Positions 1 to 15,834 of a stretch of DNA of 64,000 nt are shown in pieces. The position numbers and the translations under genes are program-made. Source of the stretch: Bryobacteraceae bacterium (GTDB lineage: Bacteria; Acidobacteriota; Terriglobia; Bryobacterales; Bryobacteraceae); assembly GCA_035502635.1 (NCBI GenBank), contig DATJUG010000064.1, positions 29,783 through 93,782 on the forward strand. Direction: 5' to 3'. Numbering within the stretch: position 1 is the stretch's first letter; the number at the start of each line of letters is the position of its first letter. The notes under the pieces were generated by a model that was given only the letters and a program-made list of their open reading frames with translations, ran no database searches and had not been told where the DNA came from.

Positions 1-234
1 ATCGAGCTTTCGCCGCAGCTCGATTCGGAGAAACAAATTACCGCCTACTTACTCAGCTTGCGTAACATTGCGCTGTCATTCCTTGGCAAAAAGTTACCTA
101 CTTCCGGCGTGACTGATCTTGCGCTCTTTAGCGATTTCCGTAAAGAAGGTGGCGGCAGTTCGCTCAGTTGGTACGCCGCCTACTACACAGAACCTCCTGC
201 CGCACGGCTGCCGGACACTGAGGTTACAGGATAA
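1..234 (+). CDS. 3' end of an unidentified protein-coding gene (N-terminus lies left of the window)
   Basis: Frame 1 is open from base 1 to TAA at 232-234 (...SLSWYAAYYTEPPAARLPDTEVTG*). The stop lies only 2 nt before the GTG start of the giant ORF, suggesting one operon. No family recognised. Confidence 0.5.
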   Translation: MELSPQLDSEKQITAYLLSLRNIALSFLGKKLPTSGVTDLALFSDFRKEGGGSSLSWYAAYYTEPPAARLPDTEVTG

Positions 235-236
235 CT

Positions 237-3200
237 GTGGATCTCGACTACATCGCCCAGCAGTTGAACAACAACATCGACCCGGCCTCGCGAAGGCTCT
301 CGCTTCCCATCTCCGTCGATTTAGGCGCGCCCATCAAGCAACTATTCGAGCAGTTTCTGCTCGGCGGCCCGCTCATCCTGAACGAAGCGCTCGTCACCAT
401 GCAGCAGGGGCAGAATCGTGTCTTGCTGACCGGAACCGGCGCCTCATTCCCGTTCGACACCCTTACTATCCGAGCCTATTTCAGCGTCGCCCCGGCTGGC
501 GATGCCGCGGTGCTGGATCTCATAGGCAATGCAGGCAAGCTCTGGAATTTCGCGGTTGCGTTCCCGGCCTTGGCGCCCACCTTCATGCCGACGCTCTCGT
601 TCGCAAGCGCCGCATTCACCCTCCGTTCGATGGAAGAGCCGGATAAGCCCGCTGGCTTGTCTTTCGCCGGCATTTTGAAACTGGATGGCGCATTATCTTT
701 TCTCCAGCCACTGCTCAATGAAACTCAGCTCGATGTCTCCTCGCCCATCACTCTCGAAGCGAACCTCCCCAAAATCAGGCTGACTGAGAATTACTTCCTG
801 GTTACTCCGGGCATCGGAACCTTCGCTCCGTTTCATGTACGGCTCGTCGCCGCCACGGACCCCACCCCGGATGGCGATATCATTCCTACCTTCGGGATTC
901 AAGGCGTGCTCACTTTTGGCGACGCCCGCGAGCTGAGCATCGGCTACGACTTACTCACAATTATTCCCGGCTATTACCACTTCGTCGCCGATTTTCGCGA
1001 AGCCGATCTTACTTTCGGAAATCTGGCGTCGCTGTTGAACGGATCGGATCCAGCACCCGTTTTGCCCGCTGTCTTCTCCGTCCTGAATAACTTCGAATTC
1101 AAGACCTGGGAGATCTATATTGCGGCATCCGGCTTCAGCGTGGCCAATGTCGTCATTTCCGTCGGTACGAAGCAGCCCTGGGAGCTGCTGCCCAACCATC
1201 TCCTGGATCTGAACCTCGATTATCTGACGCTCAACGTGCAGAACACCGGCAAGCTAGCCGTGTACTGCGACGTGCAGGCCACCTTCACGCTCAAGCAGCA
1301 GGAAGTACCGGCTGTAATCATGCTGCGAGCCAGTTACCCCGGCTTTAAGTTCTCCGGCAAGCTGGTCAGCGGCTACCTCGATATTCCCTATCTAATCGGC
1401 CGCTATATCAGCGAAGCCGCCGCTGAGTTAGTTCCTACTTCGCTCCGCGTCGACGGCTTATATCTTGCTATCGACCCGCCCACATCGTCTTACGCATTTA
1501 GCATCGACACTAAAGCCGAATGGGTGATCAAAATCGCCGACGCCAGCTTCACCGTTCTGGAGATTTCGTTCGACATCAGCCGTGTCGCACAGGCAACCAG
1601 CGGCCGTTTCAAAGGCGCCTTCCGTCTCGGCGCCATTGAGCCGCCCATTCTGGTGGATGTTGCTGCGGGCTACACGACGGCGGGCGGCTGGACCTTTGAA
1701 GGCGGTCTCACCGAAGGCAGTAAGGTCACTTTCAACGACATTCTCAACAGTTACTTCCCCGACTGGAACCTCGAGAGCATGATCGTTACACTCGAGGCCT
1801 TCCGCGTCGAGTATTCCGCGAAAACAGGCGCCTATCGGTTCCAGATCAAGGTCCTGTGGGTCCTCGAATTCCTCGGCTGGACGGCCACTCTGCATGGCGA
1901 GTGCGATATCGCCTACACCGAACAGAAAACGTATAAGGGATTCATTCGCGGCACACTGGACATCGAAGGATTTCTGCTTTCGGCCGAAGTTACTTACCCG
2001 GATAAGACCGTCACCTTGAAATTGGGTGACCTGAAGGTCGAATTTAAAGGCGACCCGGTAGTAATCACCATCTCCTTCCCCAGCATCACGCTTGGCGAAA
2101 TTATCACCACCTTAGTAACTGCCGCCATCGGCGAAAACATTACCCTCCCCGCGCCTTGGAATGTCCTGAACCTGATTAGTCTCAAAGATCTTGTGCTCAG
2201 GATTACCCCCAGCAAGCAAATCTTCGAGGCGGAATACTCGCCGAATCTCAACCTCGGCTTCGTCTCCATCGAGAAATTCGTCCTGCGCTACACCGGCGGC
2301 CAAAACTCCGCCAGCAGCAAGGTCGAGTTCGCAATCACCGCCGGCTCTTTCCTCGGCCAACCCATCGACCCCGCCGACCCGGTCAAGATGAACGTGCTCG
2401 AGCCGGCCTCTGCGCCCAAGGTGCCTGGCGCCGGCGACACAGTTTTCACGTTGCATTTCCTCGCCATCGGCCAACGCGTCGCCCTCAAAGATCCGGTCAA
2501 TGCGAAGACCGTGACCCAAGCCATGGAGATCGTTGAAAAAGCCTTCTACAAACAGCAAGACGAGGAGGGCTCGCCCGTCGCCGGCACCGGCCTCGTTCCC
2601 AGTGAGCGCAGCTCCTGGATCTTCGCCATCCGCGCCGAAATTCTCAGTTCCATCACCATCCGCGCTCTGTTCTTCGATCCCGATCTCTACGGCCTCGGCA
2701 TCAACGTCGGCGGCACGAAGTTCCCCAGCTTCACTGGCCTCAACTTCGAGATCCTCTACAAGAAGATCAACGAGAACGTCGGAGTCTACCAGATCGAGCT
2801 GAAACTCCCAGACGTGATGCGGCAGCTCGAATTCGGAAGCGTGTCCATCACGCTGCCGATCATTGCGCTCGAGATCTACACCAACGGCGATTTCCTCATC
2901 GACTTCGGCTTCCCGGCTAACGGCGATTTCACGCGCTCCTTCGCGATTCAGGTGCTGCCGTTCACCGGCGCAGGCGGCTTCTATTTCGGAGTGCTCAGCA
3001 ACGCCACCGCCAAGCGCCTCCCGCCCGGGCCGCTCTGCGGCAGCTTCAGCCCGGTTATCGAAGCCGGCGTCGGCCTGCGCATCGGCTTGGGGAAAGACAT
3101 CAATAAGGGCGTTTTGAAGGCTGGCCTCAGCCTCACCGTGCAGGGCATCATCGAAGGAACGCTGGCCTTCTATAACGACAACCTGAAACGCCCTGAATAC

Positions 3201-6200
3201 GCCGCCGCCGTCTTCTATTACATCTCCGGACAAGTCTCGATCGTCGGCCAAATCTATGGCGAGATCGATTTCGCAATCATCTCCGCGCGCCTCGACGTGC
3301 TCATCCGCATCGGCGTCACGTTCGCGATGCAGGCGCTCGACCCCATCGTGCTCGGCTTCTTCGCCGAAATCACCGTCAGCGTGTCGGTCAAGATCAATCT
3401 TGGGATCTTCAAGATCACCATCTCGCTATCCTTCTCGGCCACCTTCCGCGAATCGTTCACCATCGGCAGTGTTTCGCCCAAGCCTTGGTACATCTGCCCC
3501 GGCTCCACGCAACCACGGGCCATCCGTGCGCGCCGCACCGCGCTCGATGTCTTCGATCCCGGCTGCGACGACGTTGAGCTCGTTTTCCATCCTGTCACCA
3601 GAACAACGCCGCAGGATGTGCAGGTTCTCTTCGTTCCGCAGTTCACCCCGGCGTCGGATGTCAATGGCGGCGTTCAACCGTCCAAAGCCCGCTGCGTGGC
3701 CGCCTTCAACGTCGAGACTTCGACCGGTAAGTCATCTGCCGTCGAGACCGCTTTCGACCGGCTCGCGCGCGGAGTTTTCCTGTGGACACTCGCCGCTTAT
3801 CTGTTCCCGGAACCAAAGAGCACGCCGGAAGAAGATGTGCTCTCGCAAGAGATCACGCTCACGCAACTCGAGAAGCTCTATTGCGCTCTCACCCGTACCT
3901 CCGCAAGCCTGCTCTTCGATGAAACCCAGCTCACCGGCTTCTTCGCCGCCTATTTCAAGTTCATCGTCAGCCTGGCCGAGGAGCAAGCGGACGCCCGCAT
4001 CACCACCATCTTCCCGGCTCTCACGCCATTCATCCTCGTGCCGCCCACCCTGCCGGAAATTCCGTTCGCTTCCTGGCGAATGGTCTCGAGCCAATACCTG
4101 GCCGCCATCAAGAAATACTTCGAGCCCATGCAGGTGGATTACCTCTCGCCCAAAGAGAAGGCCGCGAAAGCCGCGCGCGCCGCCGCAGCGCCGGCTGACC
4201 CCGGCGACAAGTCGCTTGCCTGCTGGATGATGCTCGATTACTTCACTCTCCTTGTGAAAGACACCACGCAAGCCGCCATCGACACCATGACCGCCATGAC
4301 CACTACGGTCGGCGAAGGCGCCACCCTCGGGTCCATCCTGGCGCGCTATCCGGGTTCGGGCGCAACGGTCGAAGAGCTGGTCTGGGCAAATGCCACCACG
4401 CCGCTTTCTCTCAACGCCGGAGTTCGGCTGGGCGCACCCATGGGTGCTGAATACCGCGTCGACGCGAACGGCCCGAACACGCTATTCGGAATCGCGCGTC
4501 ATCACCATATCCGGCTGAACGAATTGGCGCGCACGAATCAGGACGTTCCCGGTCTCTTCCCGGCCGGCCGCCGCATCTGGTTTCCACTCATCGATTCCAT
4601 CAAAGTTTCAGACCTGCTCGCCGCCATGCAAGACCAAAGCGCGTTCCAGCACCTGGCTGGAAGCGCCTCGCGCGTGCTGCTCTCCGGGTTGCGTCCCCCT
4701 GCTCCCAACGACGGCCCGCTCACACCGCTGTATGAGCTGAATGGCCAGCAGTTTGATGCATCCACGCTCCAGGTTGGCAGCTCCTTCAGCCTGAAGATCA
4801 ATGCCGATCTGAAGTGGCTCGTCTTTGCTAAGCCCTCCTCGGACCCGCTCAGTCTCCCCGTCGTCATCAGTGCCGACGAAGCCAACGTTATTGCGGCATT
4901 CAACACCGCCAAGCTCGATCCGCAGATTCAATTGCTCCAGCCGTTGGATCTCTACAAAGTGGAACCGAAGTCATTCGGAGTCGGCAACGCGACTCTCTGG
5001 CAACTGGCCGAGGACCCGGTCAACCGCTCGATCTGGATGCTCCCCCAGAATCTGCAAACCATGCTCTTCGACAATCCCGATGCACGACCCCAAGTTGAGC
5101 TTTGGGAATCCATCCAGAAGAACCCCAACCAGGCTCCGCAACCAATCAAAGTTCCCTCCGCCGACTACACCTGGACATCGCGCATCAATGTCGTGGTGCG
5201 CAGAATTCGCACCCGTACTGGCGACCTGGTGCCCAACACCTATGAAATGCGCGGTGCCGGTGTCGCATTTAGCACGGTGCTGCAAAACTTGCTCACTTAC
5301 GCCACGCCAGATCCGGTAACCGATCTCCATATCCTTTATCTGCCCGACCCGCTCGGCGATTTCCAGGGCTTGCTCTCGCCCGCCGCAACAGCAACCCAAA
5401 TCTTCCTTCTGCAGACGAATCTCTCGACCGAAGCCAACCCGGAACTGTCCTTTGCGAGCGCGGCAGCCGTCACGAACACGTCGTATATCACCGGCATGAC
5501 CGCTCTGGACGTCCTCAAATATGTCTGGGAGGGGAGCGTCGTGCGCTCGGGCGGCTACTATCTCTACTACAAGCAAGTCCCCAGCGGCGAGGGCCTGCCC
5601 GAATACTTATTCAACGACACCGAAGAGACCACCCTCACTCTGCTCGTCACCTTGAATCCTGCCGCGCCCGGATTGTGGCCGTACATGAACAGCCTCCTTA
5701 TGACGCGCGAAGTGGATATTCAGAACACCGCGTTCTATCTGAAGGCGATCGGTCCGGAGTTAGTCGAACGCGTTCCAACCATAGGCCCAGGTTTGAACGG
5801 TTTCAACGTTCAGCGCACCACGCCCGTAACTCCGGACCTCAACGGCGCCGTTACTGCCCAGGTCGCTACGCCATTTGTAAGCGAACTCTATAATCTCCTT
5901 AATTTCCGCATTGCAGACTTTGGCGGATTCGATAGCAGCCCGTTCGCCATGCCGGCCACTCCCGCCGATGTCACCGATCCCGATCCGGATCCCAACGCCA
6001 ATCGCACTCCGCGCCTCGAAACGGACCATTGGAATTATCAGTCCGTCGCGCCCATTTACCGTTTCTCGAAAGTAATTCCGCCGCCACCGTCGGATTTACC
6101 CGCTCCGCTGCCGTCCCCGGAAAAGAATCCCTATCGCGGAATCGGCTCCGATGTACGCTTCGAGATTTCCTGGCTCGATCTGTTCGGCAACCGCATCGAG

Positions 6201-9056
6201 ACCCAGAACACCGGGCTGCAGCCCTCGCTCGATATCCCGGTCAGATACTCCGACAATCTGATTCCGGTGGACAAGTGGCCGGCTGTTTCTACCGATTTCC
6301 TCGTGAAAAAAGGCGCTTCGGCTGCGCAGCTCGATGTTACCTTGCGCTTCGACGCCTGCCGTTATCTCCCACCCTCCAGCGGCGGAACAAACGAGGACTA
6401 CAAGAGCATCGCCCTCGCCGACCGCCCGACTTATGAACTGATTTATTATCAACTTACTCAAACCGGCGTCTCTGCCACTATTTCCTCCACCTTCGATTCT
6501 GCCCAGACGCCGTGCATCAAGCCGCTGGTCGAATGTGCCGTATCCATCTATCAGTTCTTGAATGCCATTGTCGAGAATTCATCCTGGACAATTCCAGCCG
6601 ATAAAGGGATTTCTTTCACGGCAAAAGATACTAATCCTCTGCAGTATTATCAGTTGCTGGTTTCTATTTCCATTGAGCGTCCGGCTGCCCAAATACACGC
6701 CCAATTAAAGGACCCGCCGTTTGATCCCGTGCGCCGCGTCAGCAGCTTCGTTCCGGCCCAGTATACGGAAACACCCACGGATGATCCGAAGGAAAAGCCG
6801 CTTACTTTGCGCGCTTTCGTGGAACAACTGGAGCTCGCCTTCCCGAACTTGGCTGTGGCGACCGCCAAACCGCGCGCCTCCGCGAATGCCGAAAACACCC
6901 TGAAAGAGATTTGGATGGTGCGCTTCGGCGGCACAAACGGCATCGTCTACGATGTCAAACAGCCCGCCTTTTACTTCGCGCCCCTGCCGCTCTCGCGCAC
7001 TCTCCAGTCCACCGAAGTTTCCCTCTATTCGTACAGCAGCGGAAAACCCATCGATCAGGGCACGCTGCAGTCCTATTCGTTCTCGGGCGTCGATATGGAC
7101 CTGCTCGCGAAAACGTTCCTGGAAACCGTCGACCTGGTTCTTTCTCCCCAATTTGTAGTGCCCGCGTGGCTGGCGGTGAATGAAGAGGAACCGAATGCGT
7201 CGGGCCCGAACGCGATTGAACGAATACTCAGCTACAAGAAGGATCTCGCGGGCGCCATCGCTGGAGGGATCGCGCCCGTGCTGGTCGAAGAGCAAAGCAC
7301 GGGAAAAAATCTCGAAGCCGCAACCGCGAAACTACGCCAGCAGCTCCTGATCCGGCTCTCCGACCTGTATTCGGTGCATTGCATCGTGCAGTTCAACGTC
7401 TCCATCGACTCCAGCTTCACTGATGAAGCAACTGCACCGCGCCTGTTCGGCCATCCGGGACCGAAGCAGGCCATCCCGGCGCCCGGCGCGCAAACTCAGG
7501 ACTATTCATTCTCCACGGCGGAAATATCGCTATGCAACAAGCCCGGCGCTTCGCTGCTGACATTCCTGTTTGGCACGCGCGATCCTTCGGCCGCCAAGAA
7601 CGTCACGCTGGAGATGGACTATCAGCGCTCCAACCTGCAGCACGGATTCTCTACCATTCCCGGCATTCCGGACTACGAAGCTTCTTCGTGGCTCGCCTTC
7701 TATCAATTGGAGCAAGCCGAACCCGCGGGGGCGTCACAGAGCGGCCGCACCGATCTCGGCCTCGTCACGGTGCCCGTCCCGCTGCGCGCTTATCCGCCGC
7801 CGCCTGTGCTTCTGGAGCAAAGAGGATTGCCGCAGGAAGCGGTCGCGCTGCACGCGTCCGGCAATCCCGTGCTCGAACTTACGAAACGCTGGGTTTTTGA
7901 ATTTAATTGGACTTACGACCTCGCCGAGCAAGACACCCTCTATAGCGATGTTCAGTTCAACGTGCCTGGCGGAAAAGCAGCCTTCCTCAAAGCCGTACCA
8001 ACCTTGGATCTGCTTGGCGCGCTTCTGCAGTTCTCAACCGTGTATGCTGATGTCCTCCGCGACCTGGAAGATTCGTTGATCGCGACACCCAATTCGGAGC
8101 TTGCGACCGTAACCCTGAATTCTTTAGCCTGGCTAGTCCAGTTAGTCTCCGCGGCGTCGTCCGCATGGCCCCAGGCAAAGACCGCGCTGTTTGTGTTGCC
8201 CGAAGTGCTGACCGCGAACTTGCGGGTCACGCAAGCGCCCGCTACGGTGTCGGGTGTTGATTACCCGGTATTTTCCGTTACCGTGGAGTGCGAAACCGAT
8301 GGCCGCCTCTTGGAACCTACCGTAAGCCTGCCCGGTTTCAAGGCCGTACCTTTGCCCAAGCTTGCTGCCAGTAACACGACTAAGACCTATGCGTATCTGG
8401 ACGCGCAGGCTGAATACTTGCCTTACAGCGCAGGCGCCGCGATTCACACCCGTGGAATTCGTTTCCAGAACATGAATATCCTCGACGAGCAAACCGGTTG
8501 GGCCGGTCTTCACATCCGCCGCAACGAAGTCCTGGTCGAAGGCTATGAAACTAACCCAAAGTTCGTCTATGAGACGCCCGACCTACGCTTCGCCTCGGTG
8601 CTGACCCCGCTCCTGAATCCGGATGTGCCCATTAACATCGCCGATTCCAGCGCCTCGAAACCGGCATCGGACAAACTCTACCATTATCTGTTTAACTTCC
8701 TTTCGGATTTCTTCGGCAGTGCGCCTGACGCTGGCGGCACAATCAAACTGGGCGGAAGTTTTGTCTATGATTTGAACGCCGGGACGGGCCCGGTGCCTCT
8801 GCCCGTTTCCTTGCCCGTCTGGATGACTCTTCCAACTCAAGTCACTACCGGCACAGCCATGCCCCCGGAAGTCACCATTCAGGAATTCTCCCGTTCGCTT
8901 GCCGATTTTATTGTCCCGTGGTTTGCGGACCGGGGCCTTACAGGCCGCATCGGCCAGCTTGCTGTCCAGCTATCTCTTTATTCCGCTCTCGCCGGTAGTA
9001 ACCTGCCAGTCCTCGAATTACAACAATTATATTTAGAAACGGAGTTGATATGGTAA
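237..9056 (+). CDS. Giant hypothetical protein (2,939 aa), function unknown
   Basis: Uninterrupted 8.8-kb ORF, which is very unlikely by chance. GTG start 2 nt after the upstream stop, and its stop is embedded in the start region of the next gene. No N-terminal signal peptide, no Walker A, no HExxH, no YD/RHS, Ig or other repeat family visible by eye. The N-terminal third looks beta-rich and the protein contains Pro-rich linkers. Confidence 0.9.
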   Translation: MDLDYIAQQLNNNIDPASRRLSLPISVDLGAPIKQLFEQFLLGGPLILNEALVTMQQGQNRVLLTGTGASFPFDTLTIRAYFSVAPAGDAAVLDLIGNAGKLWNFAVAFPALAPTFMPTLSFASAAFTLRSMEEPDKPAGLSFAGILKLDGALSFLQPLLNETQLDVSSPITLEANLPKIRLTENYFLVTPGIGTFAPFHVRLVAATDPTPDGDIIPTFGIQGVLTFGDARELSIGYDLLTIIPGYYHFVADFREADLTFGNLASLLNGSDPAPVLPAVFSVLNNFEFKTWEIYIAASGFSVANVVISVGTKQPWELLPNHLLDLNLDYLTLNVQNTGKLAVYCDVQATFTLKQQEVPAVIMLRASYPGFKFSGKLVSGYLDIPYLIGRYISEAAAELVPTSLRVDGLYLAIDPPTSSYAFSIDTKAEWVIKIADASFTVLEISFDISRVAQATSGRFKGAFRLGAIEPPILVDVAAGYTTAGGWTFEGGLTEGSKVTFNDILNSYFPDWNLESMIVTLEAFRVEYSAKTGAYRFQIKVLWVLEFLGWTATLHGECDIAYTEQKTYKGFIRGTLDIEGFLLSAEVTYPDKTVTLKLGDLKVEFKGDPVVITISFPSITLGEIITTLVTAAIGENITLPAPWNVLNLISLKDLVLRITPSKQIFEAEYSPNLNLGFVSIEKFVLRYTGGQNSASSKVEFAITAGSFLGQPIDPADPVKMNVLEPASAPKVPGAGDTVFTLHFLAIGQRVALKDPVNAKTVTQAMEIVEKAFYKQQDEEGSPVAGTGLVPSERSSWIFAIRAEILSSITIRALFFDPDLYGLGINVGGTKFPSFTGLNFEILYKKINENVGVYQIELKLPDVMRQLEFGSVSITLPIIALEIYTNGDFLIDFGFPANGDFTRSFAIQVLPFTGAGGFYFGVLSNATAKRLPPGPLCGSFSPVIEAGVGLRIGLGKDINKGVLKAGLSLTVQGIIEGTLAFYNDNLKRPEYAAAVFYYISGQVSIVGQIYGEIDFAIISARLDVLIRIGVTFAMQALDPIVLGFFAEITVSVSVKINLGIFKITISLSFSATFRESFTIGSVSPKPWYICPGSTQPRAIRARRTALDVFDPGCDDVELVFHPVTRTTPQDVQVLFVPQFTPASDVNGGVQPSKARCVAAFNVETSTGKSSAVETAFDRLARGVFLWTLAAYLFPEPKSTPEEDVLSQEITLTQLEKLYCALTRTSASLLFDETQLTGFFAAYFKFIVSLAEEQADARITTIFPALTPFILVPPTLPEIPFASWRMVSSQYLAAIKKYFEPMQVDYLSPKEKAAKAARAAAAPADPGDKSLACWMMLDYFTLLVKDTTQAAIDTMTAMTTTVGEGATLGSILARYPGSGATVEELVWANATTPLSLNAGVRLGAPMGAEYRVDANGPNTLFGIARHHHIRLNELARTNQDVPGLFPAGRRIWFPLIDSIKVSDLLAAMQDQSAFQHLAGSASRVLLSGLRPPAPNDGPLTPLYELNGQQFDASTLQVGSSFSLKINADLKWLVFAKPSSDPLSLPVVISADEANVIAAFNTAKLDPQIQLLQPLDLYKVEPKSFGVGNATLWQLAEDPVNRSIWMLPQNLQTMLFDNPDARPQVELWESIQKNPNQAPQPIKVPSADYTWTSRINVVVRRIRTRTGDLVPNTYEMRGAGVAFSTVLQNLLTYATPDPVTDLHILYLPDPLGDFQGLLSPAATATQIFLLQTNLSTEANPELSFASAAAVTNTSYITGMTALDVLKYVWEGSVVRSGGYYLYYKQVPSGEGLPEYLFNDTEETTLTLLVTLNPAAPGLWPYMNSLLMTREVDIQNTAFYLKAIGPELVERVPTIGPGLNGFNVQRTTPVTPDLNGAVTAQVATPFVSELYNLLNFRIADFGGFDSSPFAMPATPADVTDPDPDPNANRTPRLETDHWNYQSVAPIYRFSKVIPPPPSDLPAPLPSPEKNPYRGIGSDVRFEISWLDLFGNRIETQNTGLQPSLDIPVRYSDNLIPVDKWPAVSTDFLVKKGASAAQLDVTLRFDACRYLPPSSGGTNEDYKSIALADRPTYELIYYQLTQTGVSATISSTFDSAQTPCIKPLVECAVSIYQFLNAIVENSSWTIPADKGISFTAKDTNPLQYYQLLVSISIERPAAQIHAQLKDPPFDPVRRVSSFVPAQYTETPTDDPKEKPLTLRAFVEQLELAFPNLAVATAKPRASANAENTLKEIWMVRFGGTNGIVYDVKQPAFYFAPLPLSRTLQSTEVSLYSYSSGKPIDQGTLQSYSFSGVDMDLLAKTFLETVDLVLSPQFVVPAWLAVNEEEPNASGPNAIERILSYKKDLAGAIAGGIAPVLVEEQSTGKNLEAATAKLRQQLLIRLSDLYSVHCIVQFNVSIDSSFTDEATAPRLFGHPGPKQAIPAPGAQTQDYSFSTAEISLCNKPGASLLTFLFGTRDPSAAKNVTLEMDYQRSNLQHGFSTIPGIPDYEASSWLAFYQLEQAEPAGASQSGRTDLGLVTVPVPLRAYPPPPVLLEQRGLPQEAVALHASGNPVLELTKRWVFEFNWTYDLAEQDTLYSDVQFNVPGGKAAFLKAVPTLDLLGALLQFSTVYADVLRDLEDSLIATPNSELATVTLNSLAWLVQLVSAASSAWPQAKTALFVLPEVLTANLRVTQAPATVSGVDYPVFSVTVECETDGRLLEPTVSLPGFKAVPLPKLAASNTTKTYAYLDAQAEYLPYSAGAAIHTRGIRFQNMNILDEQTGWAGLHIRRNEVLVEGYETNPKFVYETPDLRFASVLTPLLNPDVPINIADSSASKPASDKLYHYLFNFLSDFFGSAPDAGGTIKLGGSFVYDLNAGTGPVPLPVSLPVWMTLPTQVTTGTAMPPEVTIQEFSRSLADFIVPWFADRGLTGRIGQLAVQLSLYSALAGSNLPVLELQQLYLETELIW

Positions 9057-9847
9057 CTCGACTCGTCTGGCTGGCCATACTATTCGCCGCCATCCAGCCA
9101 CTCTACGCCCAAATACTTGTCAGCTCCCAGAACACGTTGCATCTCAGCGATAGCACACGAGGAGCAACCAAGCGCAAGACCATCCTGGATCAGAATGACA
9201 ATTACAATGTCAACCTTCTGCAAGAAGTCATGAAAACTGCGGATCTGGATGATGTAACTCCAGGCAAATACTATTGGAAGGAAAGCGATCTAAAGGGCAA
9301 ATCAAGCTACAAAGAAACATACGGGATTATATACAGCGACTATCTGACAGCCAATGGAGAAATCGAGGACTACCCGGACGATAACGACGATTTCGCTAGG
9401 CCGCCCAGCGGTGTGATGCTCAAGATGAAGTCAGGCGACTACGTCTGGTTTATCGACTTTCATGCTATTTGGGGCAAAAGCGCAAGCCTGCGCGAGGACG
9501 AGGCCACAGAAATGGCCGAGGTCTATAAATACTTCAAGAATCTGGAGATCAACAAGATAAAAACCACCAAAATTGTTATCGCGGGCGACTGGAATCTGGA
9601 TGCGGACAATGACGGCTTCGACGCCTTGAAAGAACTGGATAAGGGGATATTAGAGGTAACTCCTAACATGGAGACCAGCCTCACAAGGTCAGGCGATCCT
9701 TCGCAGCCCTATGATCACTTCATCGCGGAAAAAGGCAAGCTGACTGGTTGCGTTCTCACGCCCATACCTGACGATGAAGATTCGGAATGGTGGCGGGACA
9801 ATGTCTCGGATCATCGTGGAATCAAGTGCACTTACACGTATAAGTAG
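9050..9847 (+). CDS. Secreted DNase I-like nuclease (endonuclease/exonuclease/phosphatase, EEP, superfamily)
   Basis: N-terminal Sec signal (MVTRLVWLAILFAAIQPLYA/Q). Blocks align colinearly with bovine DNase I catalytic motifs: NLLQEV (LIQEV), SSYKETY (NSYKERY), DFHA (ALHS), AGDWNLD (MGDFNAD), YDHFI (YDRIV), VSDHRGI (ISDHYPV). GGAG sits 5 nt upstream of the ATG. The ATG overlaps the giant ORF stop (ATGGTAA). Confidence 0.85.
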   Translation: MVTRLVWLAILFAAIQPLYAQILVSSQNTLHLSDSTRGATKRKTILDQNDNYNVNLLQEVMKTADLDDVTPGKYYWKESDLKGKSSYKETYGIIYSDYLTANGEIEDYPDDNDDFARPPSGVMLKMKSGDYVWFIDFHAIWGKSASLREDEATEMAEVYKYFKNLEINKIKTTKIVIAGDWNLDADNDGFDALKELDKGILEVTPNMETSLTRSGDPSQPYDHFIAEKGKLTGCVLTPIPDDEDSEWWRDNVSDHRGIKCTYTYK

Positions 9848-9854
9848 GGTGTTT

Positions 9855-10724
9855 ATGCGCGGACTATACTTAGGCATCTCTTTCTGCCTTGCGCTGCGCG
9901 TTTCAGCCGCGCCACCGGTTGCCACAGGCGTATCGTTCACCGATCGCTTTATAGCAACTCCCAACCGGCATGGCCCCGTGATGGTCTATATTGCCGCTAA
10001 TTCCTTTCTCATGGGCAGCAGTCCAGAGGAATTCGGTTACACGCCATACGAACTGCGTCATCCCGTGCAGCTCTCAGCTTTCTCAATCGGTAAGTACGAA
10101 GTCACAAACGCCGAGTTTTGCCGTTTTCTGAATAACCAAGGGAACCAGATCGACGGCGGAATCCCTTGGATTCTAACCGGTCGATCGCATCGTTGTCGCA
10201 TTCAGCAGCACGGCGCCGTCTTCACGCCGGTCCCCGGTTTTGCGAACCACCCGGTCGTGACCGTATCCTGGCTCGGCGCGCGCGCTTACTGCCGGTGGCT
10301 GTCCCAGCAGACCGGCCGCAATTATCATCTCCCGACCGAAGCCCAGTGGGAATGCGCCGCCCGCGCCGGCGTCCGCACCTTGTGGGATTGGGGGAACGAG
10401 TTCGCGCCGGGCCGCCTCAATTGGCGCGGCTATTCGCTCGATCCGGCAACTACTCCGGTCGGCTCCTTCCCCCCGAACGCGTGGGGAATTTGCGATATGC
10501 TCGGCAACGTTTGGGAGTGGGTGCTGGATGCTTTCGATCCGGAGTTCTATTTATATTCGCCACTGAAAGATCCGGTCTTTTTCAAGGACGAGTGCTTGAC
10601 TCCGGGTATCCGCGGCGGAAGCTTCCGCGATAGCCTCGAATTCTGCCGTCCGGGGTACCGGGTCAACATGTGGTGGTGGGGGGATTATGACAGCATCGGT
10701 TTCCGCGTTGCTTCTCAGGCTTGA
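9855..10724 (+). CDS. Secreted SUMF1/EgtB/PvdO (FGE-sulfatase fold) domain protein
   Basis: Motifs HPVVTVSW, AxAYCxWL, YHLPTEAQWECAARAG, GNVWEWVLD and RGGSF are typical of PF03781-type domains. Start chosen at ATG 9855 (MRGLYLGISFCLALRVSAAPP signal-like N-terminus) rather than 9774, which would overlap the nuclease gene. Only one Cys follows RGGSF (EFCRPGY), so the FGE catalytic Cys pair is absent. Confidence 0.85.
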   Translation: MRGLYLGISFCLALRVSAAPPVATGVSFTDRFIATPNRHGPVMVYIAANSFLMGSSPEEFGYTPYELRHPVQLSAFSIGKYEVTNAEFCRFLNNQGNQIDGGIPWILTGRSHRCRIQQHGAVFTPVPGFANHPVVTVSWLGARAYCRWLSQQTGRNYHLPTEAQWECAARAGVRTLWDWGNEFAPGRLNWRGYSLDPATTPVGSFPPNAWGICDMLGNVWEWVLDAFDPEFYLYSPLKDPVFFKDECLTPGIRGGSFRDSLEFCRPGYRVNMWWWGDYDSIGFRVASQA

Positions 10725-12675
10725 GATTTTGGTTTGCGTCCTCGCTGCCGCGCTTCCCGCCGGGGCCGTTACTCATCTTGTGTATTCCCATTCTGGCCAA
10801 CCCGCCCAGGGGCTGTCCGTCGTCGAACGTGCGCCGGAACAGCGTGCCCGGCGCCTCGTCACCGACGAGCTAGGACAGGTCCCAACTCTCCAGGCGGGCA
10901 GCGAAGTCACCATTCGCGATTCGCGCACACACATCATCTTGATGCGCATCGCTCGCGGCGAATCGATTCCCGATCCCATCAAGGTTCCCGAGCTGATCCG
11001 CCTCTCCGGCACTGTTCAGGCCGATCCCGACGCGCGTACCGGCCTGATTGTCCGATACGGCGTTGGCAAGCGCATCACCGCCATGCAGCGATTGCAACGC
11101 AATTACGACCGGTACTCCACACTGAAAGCTCCCGAGAACACCTTCTTCGGTCTGGACCTGCCAACGGCTCCCGCTCATTGGTTAAACGCCACGGTCGATG
11201 CCGCCGGTCGCTTCACCACCAAATGGTTCCCCGCGGTCGACCATCCCATGATCGTCGCTCACAACGCTGCACGCGCGATCGGCATCAGCGACTTCACCCT
11301 CCCGAAAAGCTTCCGCACCGGCGAAACGTTCACGCTCGATCCGCTGTCCCTCACCCCTACCCGAAGTCTCACCATCCGCTATAACGCTCCGCCGAGTCCG
11401 ATAGCCCTTGATGCCGAGGTTTTTCTCAGGGATGTTCAAGTCGATCCGCAACAGCGGGAGTCCGTGCGCCGCGTCCTCAGTGTCCTCGATGCCATTGACC
11501 CGCGCCTGCTCGTCTTTGCAATCGGTTTACGGCCTTATAACATCGAAACGGGCGAAACGGTTATCTCCGGTCTTCCGCAATTTCGCGAAATGCAGGTAAG
11601 ACTGAAGGGCGCCTTCACTCCCGACACTCTCGATCGCACCGTCCAGTTCCAGGGCAATCAAGCCGATGTAGCCGTCTCCTCCGGCGATCTGTTTCCCCGC
11701 GGAGCCTCTACGCTCCTCAAAGGAGTTGTGGTGCTCGAAGATTCTTACGAGCCGGTCAAGGACGCCAAAGTCGTCTATAGCTGCTATCCGGAAAAGGTGG
11801 AAACCACCACGAATGAAAACGGCGAATTCAGTATTCCGGGTGCCTGCGCCGATCGCGATGTCACTTTCTTCGTTACCGCTTCGGATTCTCTTCAACCGGC
11901 TCGCTTCCCTCCTGTGCAGGTGCGCAAGCGAATTCAACCGAAACGGACCTCGCAGCCACTCGTCATCACGCTCCCGGTTCCGCCGCAGCCGGGCCGCTCG
12001 CCTGCGCCGCACGCGGTCGTCTCCATCGGCCCTCAGGAGCGTTTCCAGGCCGAACACGAGCGGCCGCACCTTCAGGCCCTGGAAGGCTCGCCGTTAGCGG
12101 GACTTTTTCGCGGCTCCGCTGTTCCCCCCGGAGCCTATTTCCTTCAGGACTCCCAATATGACGAGGGACCCATCGTTTACGTCTACGAGGACAACATGGA
12201 GGGCGAAATCCCCGACAACGTTGTCAAGGCCACTTGGGAATACCAGTTCGGTTCCAAGATCAGGCTCACCGTCTCAACGACTGGCACTTGGCATGTGCTT
12301 CTCGCCGTCTCTGCGTTCATGGTCTACACCGACGATGCTGTCGATTTGATCGCAAATCAGGAGAAGGAAGTCACTTTGAAGCCGCTGCACTTTGTCAGGT
12401 TTGGTAGCTGGTTGAGCGTCGTCTCAGCCTACCTTCCCCGGCCCGCTTCTAATATCCCGGTTTATTTTGCCAGTCCCGCCGTGGATCCCGATCCCACTGA
12501 GATTGATACTAATGAACTGGGAGTTGCCAAAATGGGCCTGCTCGATACCGACACCATACACGTATTTGTCAGTGATAAGAGGGCGGGCTATTTCGATTGT
12601 GACGTCAAGCTCGATTTTCGCCTTGATGCCAACGTCTTACTCTTGCCCACACCCAGCACGCCCTGCCCGAAATAG
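10687..12675 (+). CDS. Secreted hypothetical protein (662 aa) with a carboxypeptidase-regulatory-like beta-sandwich segment
   Basis: Hydrophobic N-terminus (LLLRLEILVCVLAAALPAGA). Segment VVLEDSYEPVKDAKVVYSCYPEKVETTTNENGEFSIPG resembles CarboxypepD_reg repeats. No catalytic motif seen. The ATG at 10687 overlaps the previous gene by 38 nt; an alternative TTG at 10729 would remove the overlap. Confidence 0.65.
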   Translation: MTASVSALLLRLEILVCVLAAALPAGAVTHLVYSHSGQPAQGLSVVERAPEQRARRLVTDELGQVPTLQAGSEVTIRDSRTHIILMRIARGESIPDPIKVPELIRLSGTVQADPDARTGLIVRYGVGKRITAMQRLQRNYDRYSTLKAPENTFFGLDLPTAPAHWLNATVDAAGRFTTKWFPAVDHPMIVAHNAARAIGISDFTLPKSFRTGETFTLDPLSLTPTRSLTIRYNAPPSPIALDAEVFLRDVQVDPQQRESVRRVLSVLDAIDPRLLVFAIGLRPYNIETGETVISGLPQFREMQVRLKGAFTPDTLDRTVQFQGNQADVAVSSGDLFPRGASTLLKGVVVLEDSYEPVKDAKVVYSCYPEKVETTTNENGEFSIPGACADRDVTFFVTASDSLQPARFPPVQVRKRIQPKRTSQPLVITLPVPPQPGRSPAPHAVVSIGPQERFQAEHERPHLQALEGSPLAGLFRGSAVPPGAYFLQDSQYDEGPIVYVYEDNMEGEIPDNVVKATWEYQFGSKIRLTVSTTGTWHVLLAVSAFMVYTDDAVDLIANQEKEVTLKPLHFVRFGSWLSVVSAYLPRPASNIPVYFASPAVDPDPTEIDTNELGVAKMGLLDTDTIHVFVSDKRAGYFDCDVKLDFRLDANVLLLPTPSTPCPK

Positions 12676-12773
12676 TCAGACTCTAAAATCGGCGGTCACA
12701 AACGCCAACAAGAAATTTTCACCTCGCTCCGTAGCTGCGCTATCTTGTACAACTGAAAAGGCATAGCCTCGAT

Positions 12774-12813
12774 CTACACTGCCTCTACGTGCCTTCTACG
12801 CGACGCCTGCTAC
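12774..12813 (+). repeat. Short phased CTAC(G)-N-GCCT repeats in the intergenic region upstream of the AAA+ gene
   Basis: CTAC occurs at 12774, 12785, 12796 and 12810 (spacing 11, 11, 14 nt), each preceded or followed by GCCT. A fifth CTAC is at 12837. Possible operator array, function unknown. Confidence 0.3.
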
Positions 12814-12935
12814 GCTCCAATCCGTCTCCGCCCGCGCTACATTTTTGACCGAAAGGGTTTGGAGCTCGAAAGCGCGGAATGCCCCTTCTCTTATGGAGAT
12901 GAACTCCCGCTTGACAAGCCCCAAGAGAGAGGCGG

Positions 12936-13967
12936 ATGCGAACTTATTCCTTATCCGGGCGCTCGAGACGCCCTGTTCTGCCAGAAGACCCAGATGGATT
13001 GGCCGCCAGGCTGAAAGATCTGCTCGTCGGTCAGCCCGAAGCCATCGACACCATCATTCCGTATATCCAGATGCACCAGGCTGGCCTCGCGCCTGAAGGC
13101 CGTCCGGTCGGCGTGGTCTTGTTACTTGGCCCCACCGGCACTGGAAAAACGCGTACCGTGGAAGCGCTCGCTGAAGTCCTGCACGGCAGCAGCAAAAACC
13201 TGCTCAAGGTGGATTGTGGCGAATTTCAGATGGAGCATGAAGTTGCCAAATTGATCGGCGCGCCTCCCGGATATCTGGGCCATCGCGAAACTCAGCCCAT
13301 GTTGACGCAGGCCAAAGTCAACAGCGTCGCCACCGAAAGCAGCGATATCTCGCTCGTCCTTTTCGATGAAATCGAAAAAGCCGCGCCTTCCATGACGCGC
13401 CTGCTGCTGGGCATTCTCGACAAAGCCACCCTGCGCCTCGGCGACAACACAACCGTCAACTTTGAGCGTACGCTGATCTTTCTCACCAGCAACCTGGGCG
13501 CGAAATCCATTCAGCGGCTCAATAAGCCCGATTTCGGCTATGAAGCCATGCTGCCGCCGCCGGCCATGGAAGATATGGTCAAGCTTCAAAGCGTCGGCAT
13601 GTCGGCCGTGCGTCACAAGTTTTCACCGGAATTTGTAAACCGCATCGATTCGGTCATCACCTACAAGCCTCTCGACCGCGATGCTTGCGAGATCATCCTG
13701 GATCAAATCTTCTCCAACTTCTCGCGGCTGATCAATCACCGCCTCGGTCTGCGCGGTTTCCGATTGCAGTGCACCATATCCGGGCGCAACCTGCTCCTCG
13801 ACATGGGCATCAGCGTCGAGTTTGGCGCGCGCGAGCTAAAACGCACGGTTCAGCGTAGTTTCATTCAGCCCGTGGCGGCGCTGGTCGCGCAGGGCCAGAT
13901 CCCGCCCGGCAGTACCGTAATGCTCGACGCCAAGAACGGCGAGTTCAACATCCTTCTGCGGCAATAA
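12936..13967 (+). CDS. Stand-alone single-ring AAA+ ATPase of the ClpA/ClpB D2 type (343 aa)
   Basis: Walker A GPTGTGKT, pore loop GAPPGYLGH, Walker [11 protein letters not shown], sensor-1 LTSNLG, sensor-2 GARELKR, and a D2-small-like C-terminus. Colinear with the D2 module of the bona fide ClpB at 37125-39764. No N-domain, D1 or coiled-coil middle domain. GAGAGAGG Shine-Dalgarno upstream of the ATG. Confidence 0.85.
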   Translation: MRTYSLSGRSRRPVLPEDPDGLAARLKDLLVGQPEAIDTIIPYIQMHQAGLAPEGRPVGVVLLLGPTGTGKTRTVEALAEVLHGSSKNLLKVDCGEFQMEHEVAKLIGAPPGYLGHRETQPMLTQAKVNSVATESSDISLVLFDEIEKAAPSMTRLLLGILDKATLRLGDNTTVNFERTLIFLTSNLGAKSIQRLNKPDFGYEAMLPPPAMEDMVKLQSVGMSAVRHKFSPEFVNRIDSVITYKPLDRDACEIILDQIFSNFSRLINHRLGLRGFRLQCTISGRNLLLDMGISVEFGARELKRTVQRSFIQPVAALVAQGQIPPGSTVMLDAKNGEFNILLRQ

Positions 13968-13970
13968 ACA

Positions 13971-14954
13971 TTACGGCGCCCATTTCGTGGATTCAGTCAT
14001 CGGCGCGGCACCGGCAGTGTTCACCGTCATCGTCACGTCCACCTCCCGGCCCGCGCCATCATATGCAAGGCTTCCCATCTTCAGCTCGTCTGCGCCCAAC
14101 TTGATTTCTCGCCGGCTCGAGCCGTCCGTTATGGTCACCGTCGCCCTCGACGCCGGGCCCATCTGCCGGGCATCGTGGTTCCACGAAATCTTCAATAAGT
14201 GGTCGTTGCTTGTCACCTTGAGATCCAATTGCTTCGAGCCGGTAGCGAGCCAGTCCGGCAAGGCCCCGCTTCCAGCCGCCAGCCAAAGAGCGATCAACAC
14301 GATCAGCAATCCCGCCAGCGCGGACCCGATGTACCAATTTCTCGGCGAACGCGCCCGCGATGCCGGCTCTTCGCCTTGCGGGGTTGCGGTCTCCGCTTCC
14401 ACCTCGGGAAGTGCTCTGAATTCAGCCTCGTTGAAGCGAAACTCACGGACCGATGCGTCCTGCGGTAATTCGCCGTTCTCGGCGATGAAGAATGCGGCCG
14501 TACGCGGCGCGCTCACTTGGATCAGCAGCAGAGCGTACGCCGCGCTCTTGAACTCTGTGGATAGCAGGCTTCGATCGGCCAACGACGGCTTGAGCGGCCC
14601 GGGACGGCAATGGCTGCGAAACATCCCTAATGCCGTCTTGTGCTGCGCCCGTGCCGCCTTCCGGATTTCTTCCCACCGCTTCAAATGATCGGGACCGGGA
14701 ATGTAGATTGCGCCATTCTCTGCGCCGCGCGGCATGATCTCGATAGCGTCTATCCGCAGCGTCGGTACGCGCCCGCCAAGCACGTTGCCGATCAGCACGC
14801 CGCCGATTTCGATGTCCAGTTTCTCTGTCCGGTTGAGCTCTTCAGAGATCTTCGAGACCAGATGCAGCTTCAACTCAATCGCAAACCGGGAGTGTTCCGG
14901 GCTCCATCGAATATAAAACGGCGACTCCTCGGCCGCCCGTGGCTCAGACGCCAT
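13971..14954 (-). CDS. Membrane-anchored protein with degenerate MPN/JAB-like N-terminal domain
   Basis: EIGGVLIG (the Glu-GG motif of MPN domains), then RSHCRPGPLKPSLAD where JAMM enzymes have HxHx7Sx2D, so the first His is replaced by Arg. One TM helix (WYIGSALAGLLIVLIALWLAAG) followed by a ~100-aa C-terminal beta-rich domain. The domain call is tentative. Confidence 0.5.
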   Translation of the reverse strand: MASEPRAAEESPFYIRWSPEHSRFAIELKLHLVSKISEELNRTEKLDIEIGGVLIGNVLGGRVPTLRIDAIEIMPRGAENGAIYIPGPDHLKRWEEIRKAARAQHKTALGMFRSHCRPGPLKPSLADRSLLSTEFKSAAYALLLIQVSAPRTAAFFIAENGELPQDASVREFRFNEAEFRALPEVEAETATPQGEEPASRARSPRNWYIGSALAGLLIVLIALWLAAGSGALPDWLATGSKQLDLKVTSNDHLLKISWNHDARQMGPASRATVTITDGSSRREIKLGADELKMGSLAYDGAGREVDVTMTVNTAGAAPMTESTKWAP

Positions 14955-15069
14955 AATTCAAGTTCAACGATACACTCTGTATGTTACGGTCGCTCTCTAC
15001 CTCGTCTCAACTCCCATCGGCAACCTCGAGGACATCACGTTCCGCGCCCTTCGCATCCTGCGCGACGAG

Positions 15070-15834
15070 GTGGCTTTGATCGCTTGCGAGGACACTCGCC
15101 AGACTCAAAAGCTGCTTCACCACTATGAGATTCGTAAACCGCTTGTCAGCTATCACGAACATAACGAAGCGACTCGCACGGCCGAAATTCTCGCGGCTCT
15201 CGAACGCGGCGAATCCGTCGCTCTTGTCAGCGATGCCGGCACGCCGCTGGTCTCGGATCCCGGCTACCGCGTCGTAGCCGCAGCCATCGAACACGGCTTC
15301 CAGGTAATTCCCATACCTGGAGCTTCTGCCGCCCTGGCAGCGCTCGCTGCCTCAGGTCTGCCCCCTGACGAGTTCCGGTTCATTGGCTTTCTTCCATCAA
15401 AGACCAACGCTAGAAGAAAAGCCCTCGAACAACTGGCAAACGAGCCCTCTACCGTGATCGCCTACGAAAGTCCGCACCGCATTCTCGAAACATTGAGCGA
15501 CATGGCGGAAATTCTAGGCGGCCGCCGAGTCGTGTTAGCTCGCGAGCTCACTAAAATCCACGAAGAGTTTCTGCGTGGAACGGCGCAAACCATCCGCGAG
15601 GAACTCGAGCGGCGCAGCGCTGTCAAAGGTGAGATGACGCTGCTCATCGCAGGCTCCGAAAGGATAGCCGACATCGCCGATCCGCTCGCCGAGGTCCATC
15701 GGCTCGAAGAGGAAGGGCTCGACCGAATGGAAGCCATCAAGACCGTGGCGAAACAAATGGGACTTCCGAAGCGTGAACTCTACCGGCTCGTGACGGGGCA
15801 GGGCAGCAGCCTTCCGGACAAACAGCCGCATTAG
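15070..15834 (+). CDS. rsmI: 16S rRNA (cytidine1402-2'-O)-methyltransferase RsmI
   Basis: ACEDTRQTQKLL, SDAGTPLVSDPGY, IPGASA, YESPHR and ELTKIHEE are hallmarks of RsmI/tetrapyrrole-methylase fold. 15070 (GTG) is the first canonical start, but the conserved N-terminal LYLVSTPIGNLEDITFRALRIL is encoded in the same frame upstream (from about 14986). See the rsmI finding. Confidence 0.9.
   Translation: MALIACEDTRQTQKLLHHYEIRKPLVSYHEHNEATRTAEILAALERGESVALVSDAGTPLVSDPGYRVVAAAIEHGFQVIPIPGASAALAALAASGLPPDEFRFIGFLPSKTNARRKALEQLANEPSTVIAYESPHRILETLSDMAEILGGRRVVLARELTKIHEEFLRGTAQTIREELERRSAVKGEMTLLIAGSERIADIADPLAEVHRLEEEGLDRMEAIKTVAKQMGLPKRELYRLVTGQGSSLPDKQPH

Follow-up and report, generated by a model that had tools for sequence, protein, structure and literature searches.

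Tc toxins are among the described systems closest to the gene cassette reported here, with which they share a few very large, signal-less proteins encoded side by side, a ~1,100-aa all-beta partner of a ~2,500-4,000-aa protein, a candidate membrane insertion, a variable enzymatic component and a patchy distribution. Nuclease bacteriocins (colicin E2/E9, S-pyocins) and CdtB resemble it in having a DNase-type enzyme genetically tied to large binding or translocation parts, and phage tail fibres and extracellular contractile injection systems (eCISs; Afp, PVC) in their collagen fibre proteins, LysM domains on signal-less proteins and presumed cytoplasmic assembly. The cassette lies on contig C64 (DATJUG010000064.1) of a Bryobacteraceae bacterium (genome G000, GCA_035502635.1), partly within the 64,000-nt stretch of DNA that was analysed, hereafter the window (G000:C64:29783-93782, with 29.8 kb of the contig to its left). 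It is a 19-kb unit of seven genes extending from C64:23443 to window position 12,675. The explanation that we favour overall, with moderate confidence, is a horizontally acquired cassette of a family built from an all-beta protein (A1), a hydrolase and a giant protein, and encoding a particle-like device.

In comparison with Tc toxins, however, the putative membrane element is a beta-hairpin rather than an alpha-helical channel, the enzyme is encoded by a separate gene or as an N-terminal fusion rather than in a C-terminal hypervariable region, and Tc toxins are without LysM domains and collagen fibres. None of the Tc signatures VRP1, TcA, SpvB, RHS/YD and TcdB-mid was found on any cassette protein with Pfam or NCBIfam, and the Foldseek row for TcdB2-TccC3 (TM-score 0.07, probability 0.14) is noise. 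CdtB is a DNase I-like member of the endonuclease/exonuclease/phosphatase (EEP) class and so belongs to the same fold class as the predicted enzyme of the cassette (P0002) and the hydrolase families fam0 and fam5 of its relatives, but homology to CdtB or the nuclease bacteriocins does not extend beyond the EEP fold: no immunity gene is recognised here, the EEP enzyme of this clade has its own Sec signal, and its partner proteins are more than 10 times larger than, and unrelated to, the partners of those nucleases. These likenesses, and those to BclA and to outer-membrane barrels described below, are analogies of function only.

From left to right the cassette encodes a GT4 glycosyltransferase, a collagen-repeat/Kelch protein, the 1,120-aa A1, the 2,939-aa giant, the EEP enzyme, an FGE-fold protein and a 662-aa protein. 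A first-pass annotation of the window had taken a giant open reading frame (ORF) and the genes packed closely around it for a candidate system that matches none known, and had proposed that this system continues to the left of the window. Both proposals hold: the gene order is common to five metagenome contigs (L006, L007/L008, L014, L015) with giants of 46-94% identity, the systems that we tested are unmatched, and the fragment at window positions 1-234 is the end of the 1,120-aa gene, preceded by the collagen/Kelch and GT4 genes, so that the first three genes (G000:C64:23443-29782) lie mainly left of the window, which only the tail of A1 reaches. In the related cassettes the corresponding products are a glycosyltransferase, a (collagen-)Kelch protein, proteins of ~1,120-1,135 aa, ~2,940-3,000 aa and ~265-274 aa, an FGE protein and a protein of ~660-700 aa; the EEP and 662-aa proteins are orthologous across them.

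On its 3′ side the cassette ends 12-15 nt past the stop codon at 12,675, since the alignment with the giant-free genome G018 begins at ~12,687-12,691 and synteny therefore breaks at window position ~12,687. Relatives of the giant were found in none of 40 close-relative genomes and in 4 of 400 other sampled genomes of its own phylum. Together with the synteny break past the last gene, this demonstrates that the cassette is horizontally acquired, mobile and patchily distributed. Among the sequencing runs listed, the stretch is present in wetland and soil DNA metagenomes only, and in no RNA run. The boundaries of the cassette are now defined. Similar loci exist elsewhere; the novelty lies in recognising the system.

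Directly to the left of the cassette lies a gene for a secreted tectonin beta-propeller (lectin-like; P0011, L004:8403-9260 = G000:C64:22403-23260). It was considered as the first cassette gene and rejected, as it is without a counterpart in the related cassettes and a 74%-identical copy is present elsewhere in G018; it is probably backbone. Further left follow divergent PilZ, M56 peptidase and TonB-type receptor genes. A stretch of ~80 nt (L004:2895-2978, G000:C64:16895-16978), with 79-100% identity to many sites in relatives, is probably a tRNA gene and is located 6.5 kb left of the cassette, not at its edge. Promoter and terminator scans of window positions 12,400-15,200 and of the region upstream of the GT4 gene gave nothing above shuffled expectation.

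The cassette belongs to a much larger family. Among the candidates scored we identified 312 homologues of the giant, ranging from 1,616 to 5,144 aa and, where named, annotated as 'LysM peptidoglycan-binding domain-containing protein' or 'hypothetical'. They are collinear from about residue 250 to the C-terminus, their length differences being mostly due to extra LysM repeats and N-terminal additions, and the family can be described as collinear 'LysM domain' proteins of 2,500-4,400 aa. A pattern scan using one genome per species returned at least 599 stretches, at least 506 of which encode giant relatives. These are mostly from Bacteroidota (Chitinophaga, Mucilaginibacter, Pedobacter, Chryseobacterium, Flavobacterium, Tenacibaculum, Aquimarina, Niastella, Saprospiraceae), and also from Acidobacteriota, Chloroflexota (Chloroflexia), Ignavibacteria/Kapaibacterium, Chlorobiales, some Gammaproteobacteria and others. 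The A1 family comprises 1,205 clusters at 50% identity, and A1 lies upstream of the giant on the same strand in 77 of the 81 retrieved loci with a full-length giant (our own count from the printed rows, which includes the present locus and some duplicate records), separated from it by 0-4 small genes. The conserved core of the family is thus an all-beta A1 of ~1,100-1,250 aa, a small hydrolase or other module and a giant of 2,500-4,400 aa, often accompanied by collagen-repeat proteins and glycosyltransferases.

Gene fusions connect these core components further. In four proteins of 3,422-3,976 aa (P0217, P0235, P0268, P0282) an A1-like region (~residues 40-1,190) is fused to the giant from ~740 to its end, and these fusion proteins are without the N-terminal module of the giant. 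The small module fam7 is fused to the N-terminus of the giant in 26 sequences, including the Flavobacterium pallidum and R. palustris proteins (the set counted holds some proteins twice), and a metallo-beta-lactamase (MBL) module is fused to a Niastella giant. Such Rosetta-stone fusions speak for a single physical unit of A1, small module and giant. A complex prediction for giant residues 739-1099 and A1 residues 740-1120 scored 0.18 against a mark of 0.32, which gives no verdict and is evidence neither way. Kinship between A1 and the giant was also considered and rejected (hhalign probability 0.2%).

No family models for the core were found in Pfam, NCBIfam, PADLOC or PHROG beyond generic domains, and our literature searches found no published description of the family (a passage of PMC12419801 deals with giant proteins that are unrelated). 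To the extent of these searches the family has not previously been described as a system and is carried in databases as 'LysM' or 'hypothetical'.

Although the first-pass annotation had seen no motif that it could place in the giant (P0001), two LysM domains are detected at residues ~1355-1452. The family profile matches the LysM structures 4uz2, 8i2e, 4b8v and 1e0g with E-values between 1.5e-4 and 6e-3, the single sequence matches 4uz2 with E = 0.023, the Pfam LysM match on the giant itself (1.7e-3) is under the gathering score, and precomputed PF01476 matches are present on most of its homologues, from which we predict the giant to be a member of the LysM family (PF01476). LysM is a ~45-residue beta-alpha-alpha-beta domain that binds peptidoglycan and GlcNAc glycans. 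The giant has no signal peptide and no hydrophobic N-terminal segment, and no signal peptide or transmembrane helix was found on the giant or A1 in any lineage inspected.

The most conserved block of the family, residues 847-1079 of the giant, carries the motifs FEILYKK, IYTNGDF and PFTGAGGFYFG. In the AlphaFold2 (AF2) model of residues 700-1850 (pLDDT 83.8) it is predicted to form strongly amphipathic beta-hairpins of 18-23 residues. In VIA-align against 48,161 chains this block superimposed on outer-membrane barrel walls along 176-210 residues (Z 8-12.6), the best match being CymA (Z 12.6, rmsd 4.8 Å, 191 residues), with HasR (Z 11.2) and FhaC (Z 10.7, rmsd 3.1 Å, 176 residues) among the others; 75 chains reached Z ≥ 8, and each displayed row is a transmembrane beta-barrel protein. 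The family-averaged hydropathy along the hairpin strands alternates strongly, between about +3.5/+3.6 and -1.5; as other strands do so too, if to a lesser degree, this is suggestive but not proof. The likeness to outer-membrane barrels (CymA, TonB-dependent receptors, FhaC/TpsB, autotransporters, BamA) thus consists of the superposition of the wall and the long amphipathic strands. It contrasts with the missing signal peptide of the giant, identities of 3-12%, the lack of any match to a Pfam outer-membrane protein family and the position of the block in the middle of a 2,939-aa protein. Foldseek against the PDB with the same model gave no row at E ≤ 0.001, and a PDB sequence search with the giant profile returned LysM only.

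The AsmA and TamB proteins are very large, beta-rich proteins of the envelope with amphipathic sheets, but the giant and A1 (P0008) have neither a Pfam AsmA/TamB match nor an anchor: tiles of the giant showed no Pfam match to AsmA, TamB (DUF490) or DUF748 even at E ≤ 10 and the giant has no N-terminal anchor helix, and a genuine TamB gene is present separately near the Hymenobacter locus. A lead from embeddings to DUF6603 (PF20248) was dropped, as PF20248 had no match in the cassette's own genome at E ≤ 10, and comparison of DUF6603 ORFs from the phylum with the A1 and giant profiles by hmmsearch and hhalign gave nothing (probability 0.3-4%). DUF6603 proteins of Acidobacteriota occur as runs of three or four consecutive ORFs of 800-2,000 aa (L121-L123: G177:C7, G160:C8, G241:C12) and also as proteins of ~3,280 aa (L119/L120). 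They form another uncharacterised cluster of large proteins and are not detectably related to the giant family.

A1 was modelled with good confidence by AF2 as an almost all-beta multidomain protein (pLDDT 88.4, pTM 0.79), and no described fold was recovered for it: Foldseek against the PDB and BFVD returned only rows with TM-scores of 0.05-0.12, the best VIA-align hit (Z 5.7, a small barrel at residues 744-923) is not significant, and its profile matched nothing among PDB sequences. Pfam, NCBIfam and PHROG gave no match on A1 or the giant beyond LysM, and PADLOC had no match for P0001-P0004, P0008, P0009 or P0011. For the systems tested, the earlier statement that the locus matches none known is supported by profile and structure searches, which gave no described family for A1 or, LysM apart, for the giant.

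The collagen/Kelch protein (P0009, 656 aa) combines ~270 residues of collagen Gly-X-Y repeats with a Kelch propeller, has no signal peptide and is encoded immediately to the right of the GT4 glycosyltransferase gene (P0010). Collagen-repeat proteins are present in 15 family loci, including those of Flavobacterium and Hymenobacter, the Hymenobacter protein being a collagen-Kelch protein as well. P0009 and the collagen protein of F. pallidum (L009:5340-6578) have in common a short non-collagen interruption, GYPG-x-TWS-x-LV, more precisely GYPG(A/N)TWS(F/Y)LV, and its conservation suggests a kink or docking site in the fibre. Glycosyltransferases are frequent neighbours in the family loci; the F. 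pallidum locus encodes a 1,459-aa multi-GT protein, and GT2-TPR proteins occur downstream of or near the giant in 14 loci. In F. pallidum the giant is followed by two glycosyltransferase genes and then, at a distance of 6 kb, by a gene of the pore-forming MACPF family (L009:26774-28360).

Such Gly-X-Thr/Pro repeats with a C-terminal globular head and linked glycosyltransferase genes are also known from BclA, Scl1/2 and Legionella Lcl, and similar considerations lead to an explanation, the main rival to the one that we favour, in which the system is a surface structure anchored in the producer's own envelope. The giant would then reside in the outer membrane by way of its barrel-like block, with its LysM domains holding on to peptidoglycan, the collagen proteins would form a glycosylated fibrillar nap or adhesin layer like BclA, and the EEP, FGE and 662-aa proteins, once secreted, would work next to the giant in the periplasm or outside the cell. 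The LysM pair, the resemblance of the conserved block to outer-membrane barrels, the recurrent glycosyltransferases and collagen-repeat proteins and the three Sec-bearing accessories, which place part of the system in the envelope, all agree with this. However, the giant, A1 and the collagen/Kelch protein are without a signal peptide in every lineage examined, no type I secretion, type IX secretion C-terminal domain or Bam-related gene is linked to the loci, and an adhesin would have no evident use for the conserved nuclease-type hydrolase, in some cases a fusion partner of the giant. P0009 furthermore differs from BclA, Scl and Lcl in that it has no LPXTG motif, signal peptide or exosporium targeting motif, its head is a Kelch propeller and its gene context is unique. 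Taken together we consider a surface structure rather unlikely, at roughly one chance among four.

The EEP enzyme bears a Sec signal and its gene overlaps that of the giant by ATGGTAA, from which it is predicted to be translationally coupled to the giant. Its sequence contains the motifs LLQE, FHA, GDWN, YDH and SDH, which are invariant in five orthologues; the Pfam PF03372 match (2.9e-4) is below cut-off, MnuA is matched at 5.7e-11, and in the PDB the enzyme comes closest to DNase I and DNase gamma. By these signs P0002 is a predicted member of the DNase I-like EEP superfamily with a complete set of catalytic residues. The first-pass annotation had called the nuclease swappable and one of the three genes after the giant compositionally foreign; that the nuclease gene is foreign and swapped in is not supported. 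Orthologues (including P0135 and P0136) with 54-98% identity occupy the same position in all five related cassettes, and while the GC content of the gene is indeed low (49.0% versus 57.6% for the genome), the EEP gene has the lowest GC content in each related cassette, so that low GC is a property of the gene and no sign of a recent swap.

The idea of a variable effector fails within the window's own clade and survives in a weaker form, as the hydrolase slot does vary at the deep level of the family, where it holds DNase I-like proteins, MBL-fold proteins (fam9) or other proteins. In a joint alignment of the families fam0 and fam5 the residues WN, E, H, GDFN, DN and S-x-H are invariant, and in the PDB both families come closest to DNase I/DNase gamma (4e-7). 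For fam7 (~500-566 aa) no Pfam or PDB match was found, though its motifs SGxGH and EGxGT give a tentative impression of a GT-B-like fold. Some loci (L043, L044, L078, L102) contain arrays of three or four tandem paralogues of the MBL-fold fam9 or of fam7 between A1 and the giant, a pattern reminiscent of arrays in which effectors or cargo diversify.

Besides nucleases, enzymes of EEP and MBL fold comprise phosphatases and phosphodiesterases, and this, with the frequent glycosyltransferase neighbours described above (the multi-GT protein and the 14 loci with GT2-TPR proteins), is consistent with a cytoplasmic or envelope scaffold for glycan or cell-wall assembly that would make or remodel a GlcNAc polymer. 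The glycosyltransferases would build this polymer and LysM would bind it, with the EEP and MBL proteins as phosphoesterases. Against such a role, both EEP groups are structurally closest to DNases, biosynthesis genes seldom show the variation and tandem amplification seen in the hydrolase slot, and a core envelope function is unlikely because the distribution is so patchy. We therefore regard glycan assembly as a distinctly improbable explanation.

A further possibility is that the locus is the highly diverged remnant of a phage or eCIS baseplate and fibre, with fused gp6/gp7-like wedges, a P2 gpX-type LysM and a collagen tail fibre, but no sheath or tube. The collagen region of P0009 does match many phage tail-fibre PHROGs, LysM domains on signal-less proteins are typical of phage tail proteins, and the core proteins here are without signal peptides. 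However, the PHROG matches are limited to the collagen repeats, with none on A1 or the giant. Sheath, tube, spike (VgrG/gp5) and gp25/gp6/gp7 genes are absent from the region, the 30 kb upstream and eight annotated homologous loci, an Afp15-type ATPase is missing from the locus and upstream of it, and the loci inspected contain no capsid or terminase genes. The first-pass annotation had noted the absence of sheath, tube, VgrG, PAAR, Rhs and Tc signatures from the window, and the leftward extension shows none upstream either, the upstream part of the contig being free of spike and secretion genes. Finally, no match to a baseplate wedge (gp6/gp7, Cis11/Cis12) appeared in Pfam, NCBIfam, PHROG, Foldseek (PDB, BFVD) or the VIA-align lists; the fold comparison covered A1 and giant residues 700-1850, and its lists are dominated by single domains. 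A phage or eCIS origin is consequently very unlikely.

Among the mechanisms compatible with a particle-like device, the one that we put forward, tentatively and with a good deal of doubt, is a fibre-bearing, membrane-inserting complex that would deploy a nuclease, and hence a device for antagonism or predation rather than an add-on to secretion. As A1, the giant and the collagen/Kelch protein are without Sec signals, we infer that they would come together in the cytoplasm as a single large complex. Binding would fall to collagen-like fibres, glycosylated and tipped with Kelch heads; peptidoglycan or GlcNAc glycans would be held by the LysM pair, the amphipathic hairpin block would enter a membrane, and the DNase I-like hydrolase (elsewhere one of MBL fold) would be the enzymatic payload or tool.

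Several observations weigh against this proposal. The control strands of the model also alternate in hydropathy, if less strongly, and amphipathic strands are found in soluble sheets as well. A barrel-like fold without a signal peptide is paradoxical, and the AF2 model of the giant covers residues 700-1850. The Sec signals on the EEP, FGE and 662-aa proteins, compared with a core that has none, fit poorly with a shared particle, and they could point to an envelope location reached via another route. No immunity genes, lysis genes or export machinery were recognised in the loci. Finally, the mechanism is built on domain analogy, and the toxin-delivery or conflict reading of the first-pass annotation was likewise an inference.

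The FGE-fold protein, described as such in the first-pass annotation, matches Pfam FGE-sulfatase (PF03781) with E = 4e-50 over profile positions 3-254 of 255, and is thereby predicted to be a member of the FGE-sulfatase fold; its best NCBIfam matches, PvdO, GldK and EgtB, are all far below cut-off, and no equivalog is reached. The 662-aa protein (P0004) has a signal peptide and one weak CarboxypepD_reg-like domain, and gave nothing in a search against PDB sequences. Both genes are confined to the window's own clade and are clade-specific accessories.

The ORF map reproduced all ORF coordinates of the first-pass annotation, and its junctions read as it had described them (Table 1). The A1 stop codon TAA at 232-234 is followed two bases on by the GTG of the giant at 237, the ATGGTAA overlap of giant and EEP lies at 9050-9056, and 7 nt separate the end of the EEP gene at 9847 from the FGE start at 9855, which agrees with the gene call in the near-identical contig L015. 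For the FGE/662-aa junction two alternatives had been given, a 38-nt overlap or a short gap from a later start; the overlap (10687-10724) is retained, as the ATG at 10687 is backed by the MTASV N-terminus of the orthologue P0137. Hydrophobic, signal-like N-terminal segments are present on the EEP and 662-aa proteins and, read directly from the 9855 start, on the FGE protein, in agreement with the earlier observation of Sec-type signals on the three genes after the giant and none on the giant itself.

Table 1. Features of the cassette and of the backbone genes to its right (window positions unless a contig is named)
Feature	Position	Strand	Description
Collagen/Kelch gene (P0009)	L004:10676-12646 = G000:C64:24676-26646		656 aa, collagen repeats and Kelch propeller
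A1 (P0008)	G000:C64:26654-30016	+	1,120 aa, all-beta multidomain (modelled), no signal peptide
A1, end in window	1..234	+	Last 77 codons; stop TAA at 232-234
Giant (P0001)	237..9056	+	2,939 aa, GTG start
Giant, N-terminal module	237..2396	+	aa 1-720; replaced by A1-like domain in some homologues, preceded by fused fam7/MBL in others
Giant, hairpin block (modelled)	2775..3473	+	aa 847-1079; most conserved block of the family
Giant, predicted LysM pair	4299..4592		~aa 1355-1452
Giant, C-terminal module	5754..9053	+	aa 1840-2939; kept across the family
EEP enzyme (P0002, predicted)	9050..9847	+	265 aa
FGE-fold gene	9855..10724	+	289 aa from 9855 start; ORF from 9774
662-aa gene (P0004)	10687..12675	+	Last cassette gene
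Upstream region of ATPase gene	12691..12935	.	Backbone, outside cassette
Single-ring ClpB-D2-type AAA+ (P0005, predicted)	12936..13967	+	343 aa, backbone
MPN/JAB-like protein (P0006)	13971..14954	-	327 aa, one transmembrane helix, backbone; convergent with ATPase gene

To the right of the cassette lie an ATPase gene and an MPN-like gene that had been counted as part of the unit, in a single system of nine or more genes that would include a Clp-type unfoldase and the MPN-like protein. The ATPase (P0005) matches AAA_2 (2.8e-36) and ClpB_D2-small (2.7e-10) and aligns to ClpB residues 560-851 only, which identifies it as a probable single-ring, D2-only AAA+ protein of the ClpB/ClpA type. The matches of the MPN-like protein (P0006) are marginal (PADLOC JAB 1.3e-3, Pfam JAB 0.15) and its search against PDB sequences gave only noise; read directly, it has the EIGGVL start and PSLAD, with the JAMM HxH replaced by RSH, and is possibly an inactive MPN protein. 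Orthologues were found in 11 of 18 same-genus genomes sampled.

The genes do adjoin in this genome and in the 94%-identical L015, an independent Logan contig that contains the 662-aa gene, the spacer and an ATPase gene whose first 102 residues are identical to P0005, which shows that the junction between 662-aa gene and spacer is no assembly artefact. However, in the three regions examined the giant-free genomes G018, G015 and G017 show exactly the arrangement of the window, with the ATPase gene (79-96% identical), the MPN-like gene, rsmI and the genes after it. Synteny breaks where the 662-aa gene gives way to the spacer: alignment of G018 to the 245 nt before the ATPase gene begins at window position ~12,687-12,691 (blastn, G018:C77:11194-11450 to C64:42469-42725), and the G018 DNA left of the break matches another G000 contig, C108. 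Moreover, the cassettes at 46-65% identity (L006, L008, L014) are followed by unrelated genes and are without both the ATPase and the MPN-like gene. The ATPase gene, the MPN-like gene and the spacer are therefore unrelated chromosome backbone, and a nine-gene system is hardly credible. In annotation, the ClpB-D2 and MPN-like genes are best kept apart from the cassette.

Two further remarks concern this backbone block. The 260-nt spacer is confirmed, and of the phased repeats described in it, five CTAC motifs ~10-14 nt apart are present at window positions 12775-12830 in the upstream region of the ATPase gene; they are probably due to chance, as they are conserved neither in L015 nor in G018. 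Two PADLOC models of candidate defence systems, PDC-M37B and DolB, are weakly matched by the ATPase, and the convergent ATPase/MPN-like pair, with its genes 3 nt apart, is uncharacterised in its own right.

Irrespective of its mechanism, the family represents a 15-20 kb module found in at least 500 species from six or more phyla, including cultured genera (Chryseobacterium, Chitinophaga, Pedobacter, Tenacibaculum, Flavobacterium, Niastella), and our searches gave no known fold for its two main proteins; the fusions, the confident models and the defined boundaries make the module testable in culturable hosts. It may constitute an unrecognised class of antagonism or predation devices that are assembled in the cytoplasm from proteins lacking Sec signals, bind target-cell glycans or peptidoglycan, form a beta-hairpin pore and carry interchangeable enzymes of DNase I-like or MBL fold, and such devices may be present in at least 500 species, especially among gliding, lytic Bacteroidota, Chloroflexota and Acidobacteriota, although we consider these two propositions, taken jointly, to be speculative and on balance unlikely. 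As a surface fibril organelle the system would amount to an envelope structure of a new type; as a toxin or predation particle it would stand beside Tc toxins, tailocins and contractile injection systems as a further principle of delivery.

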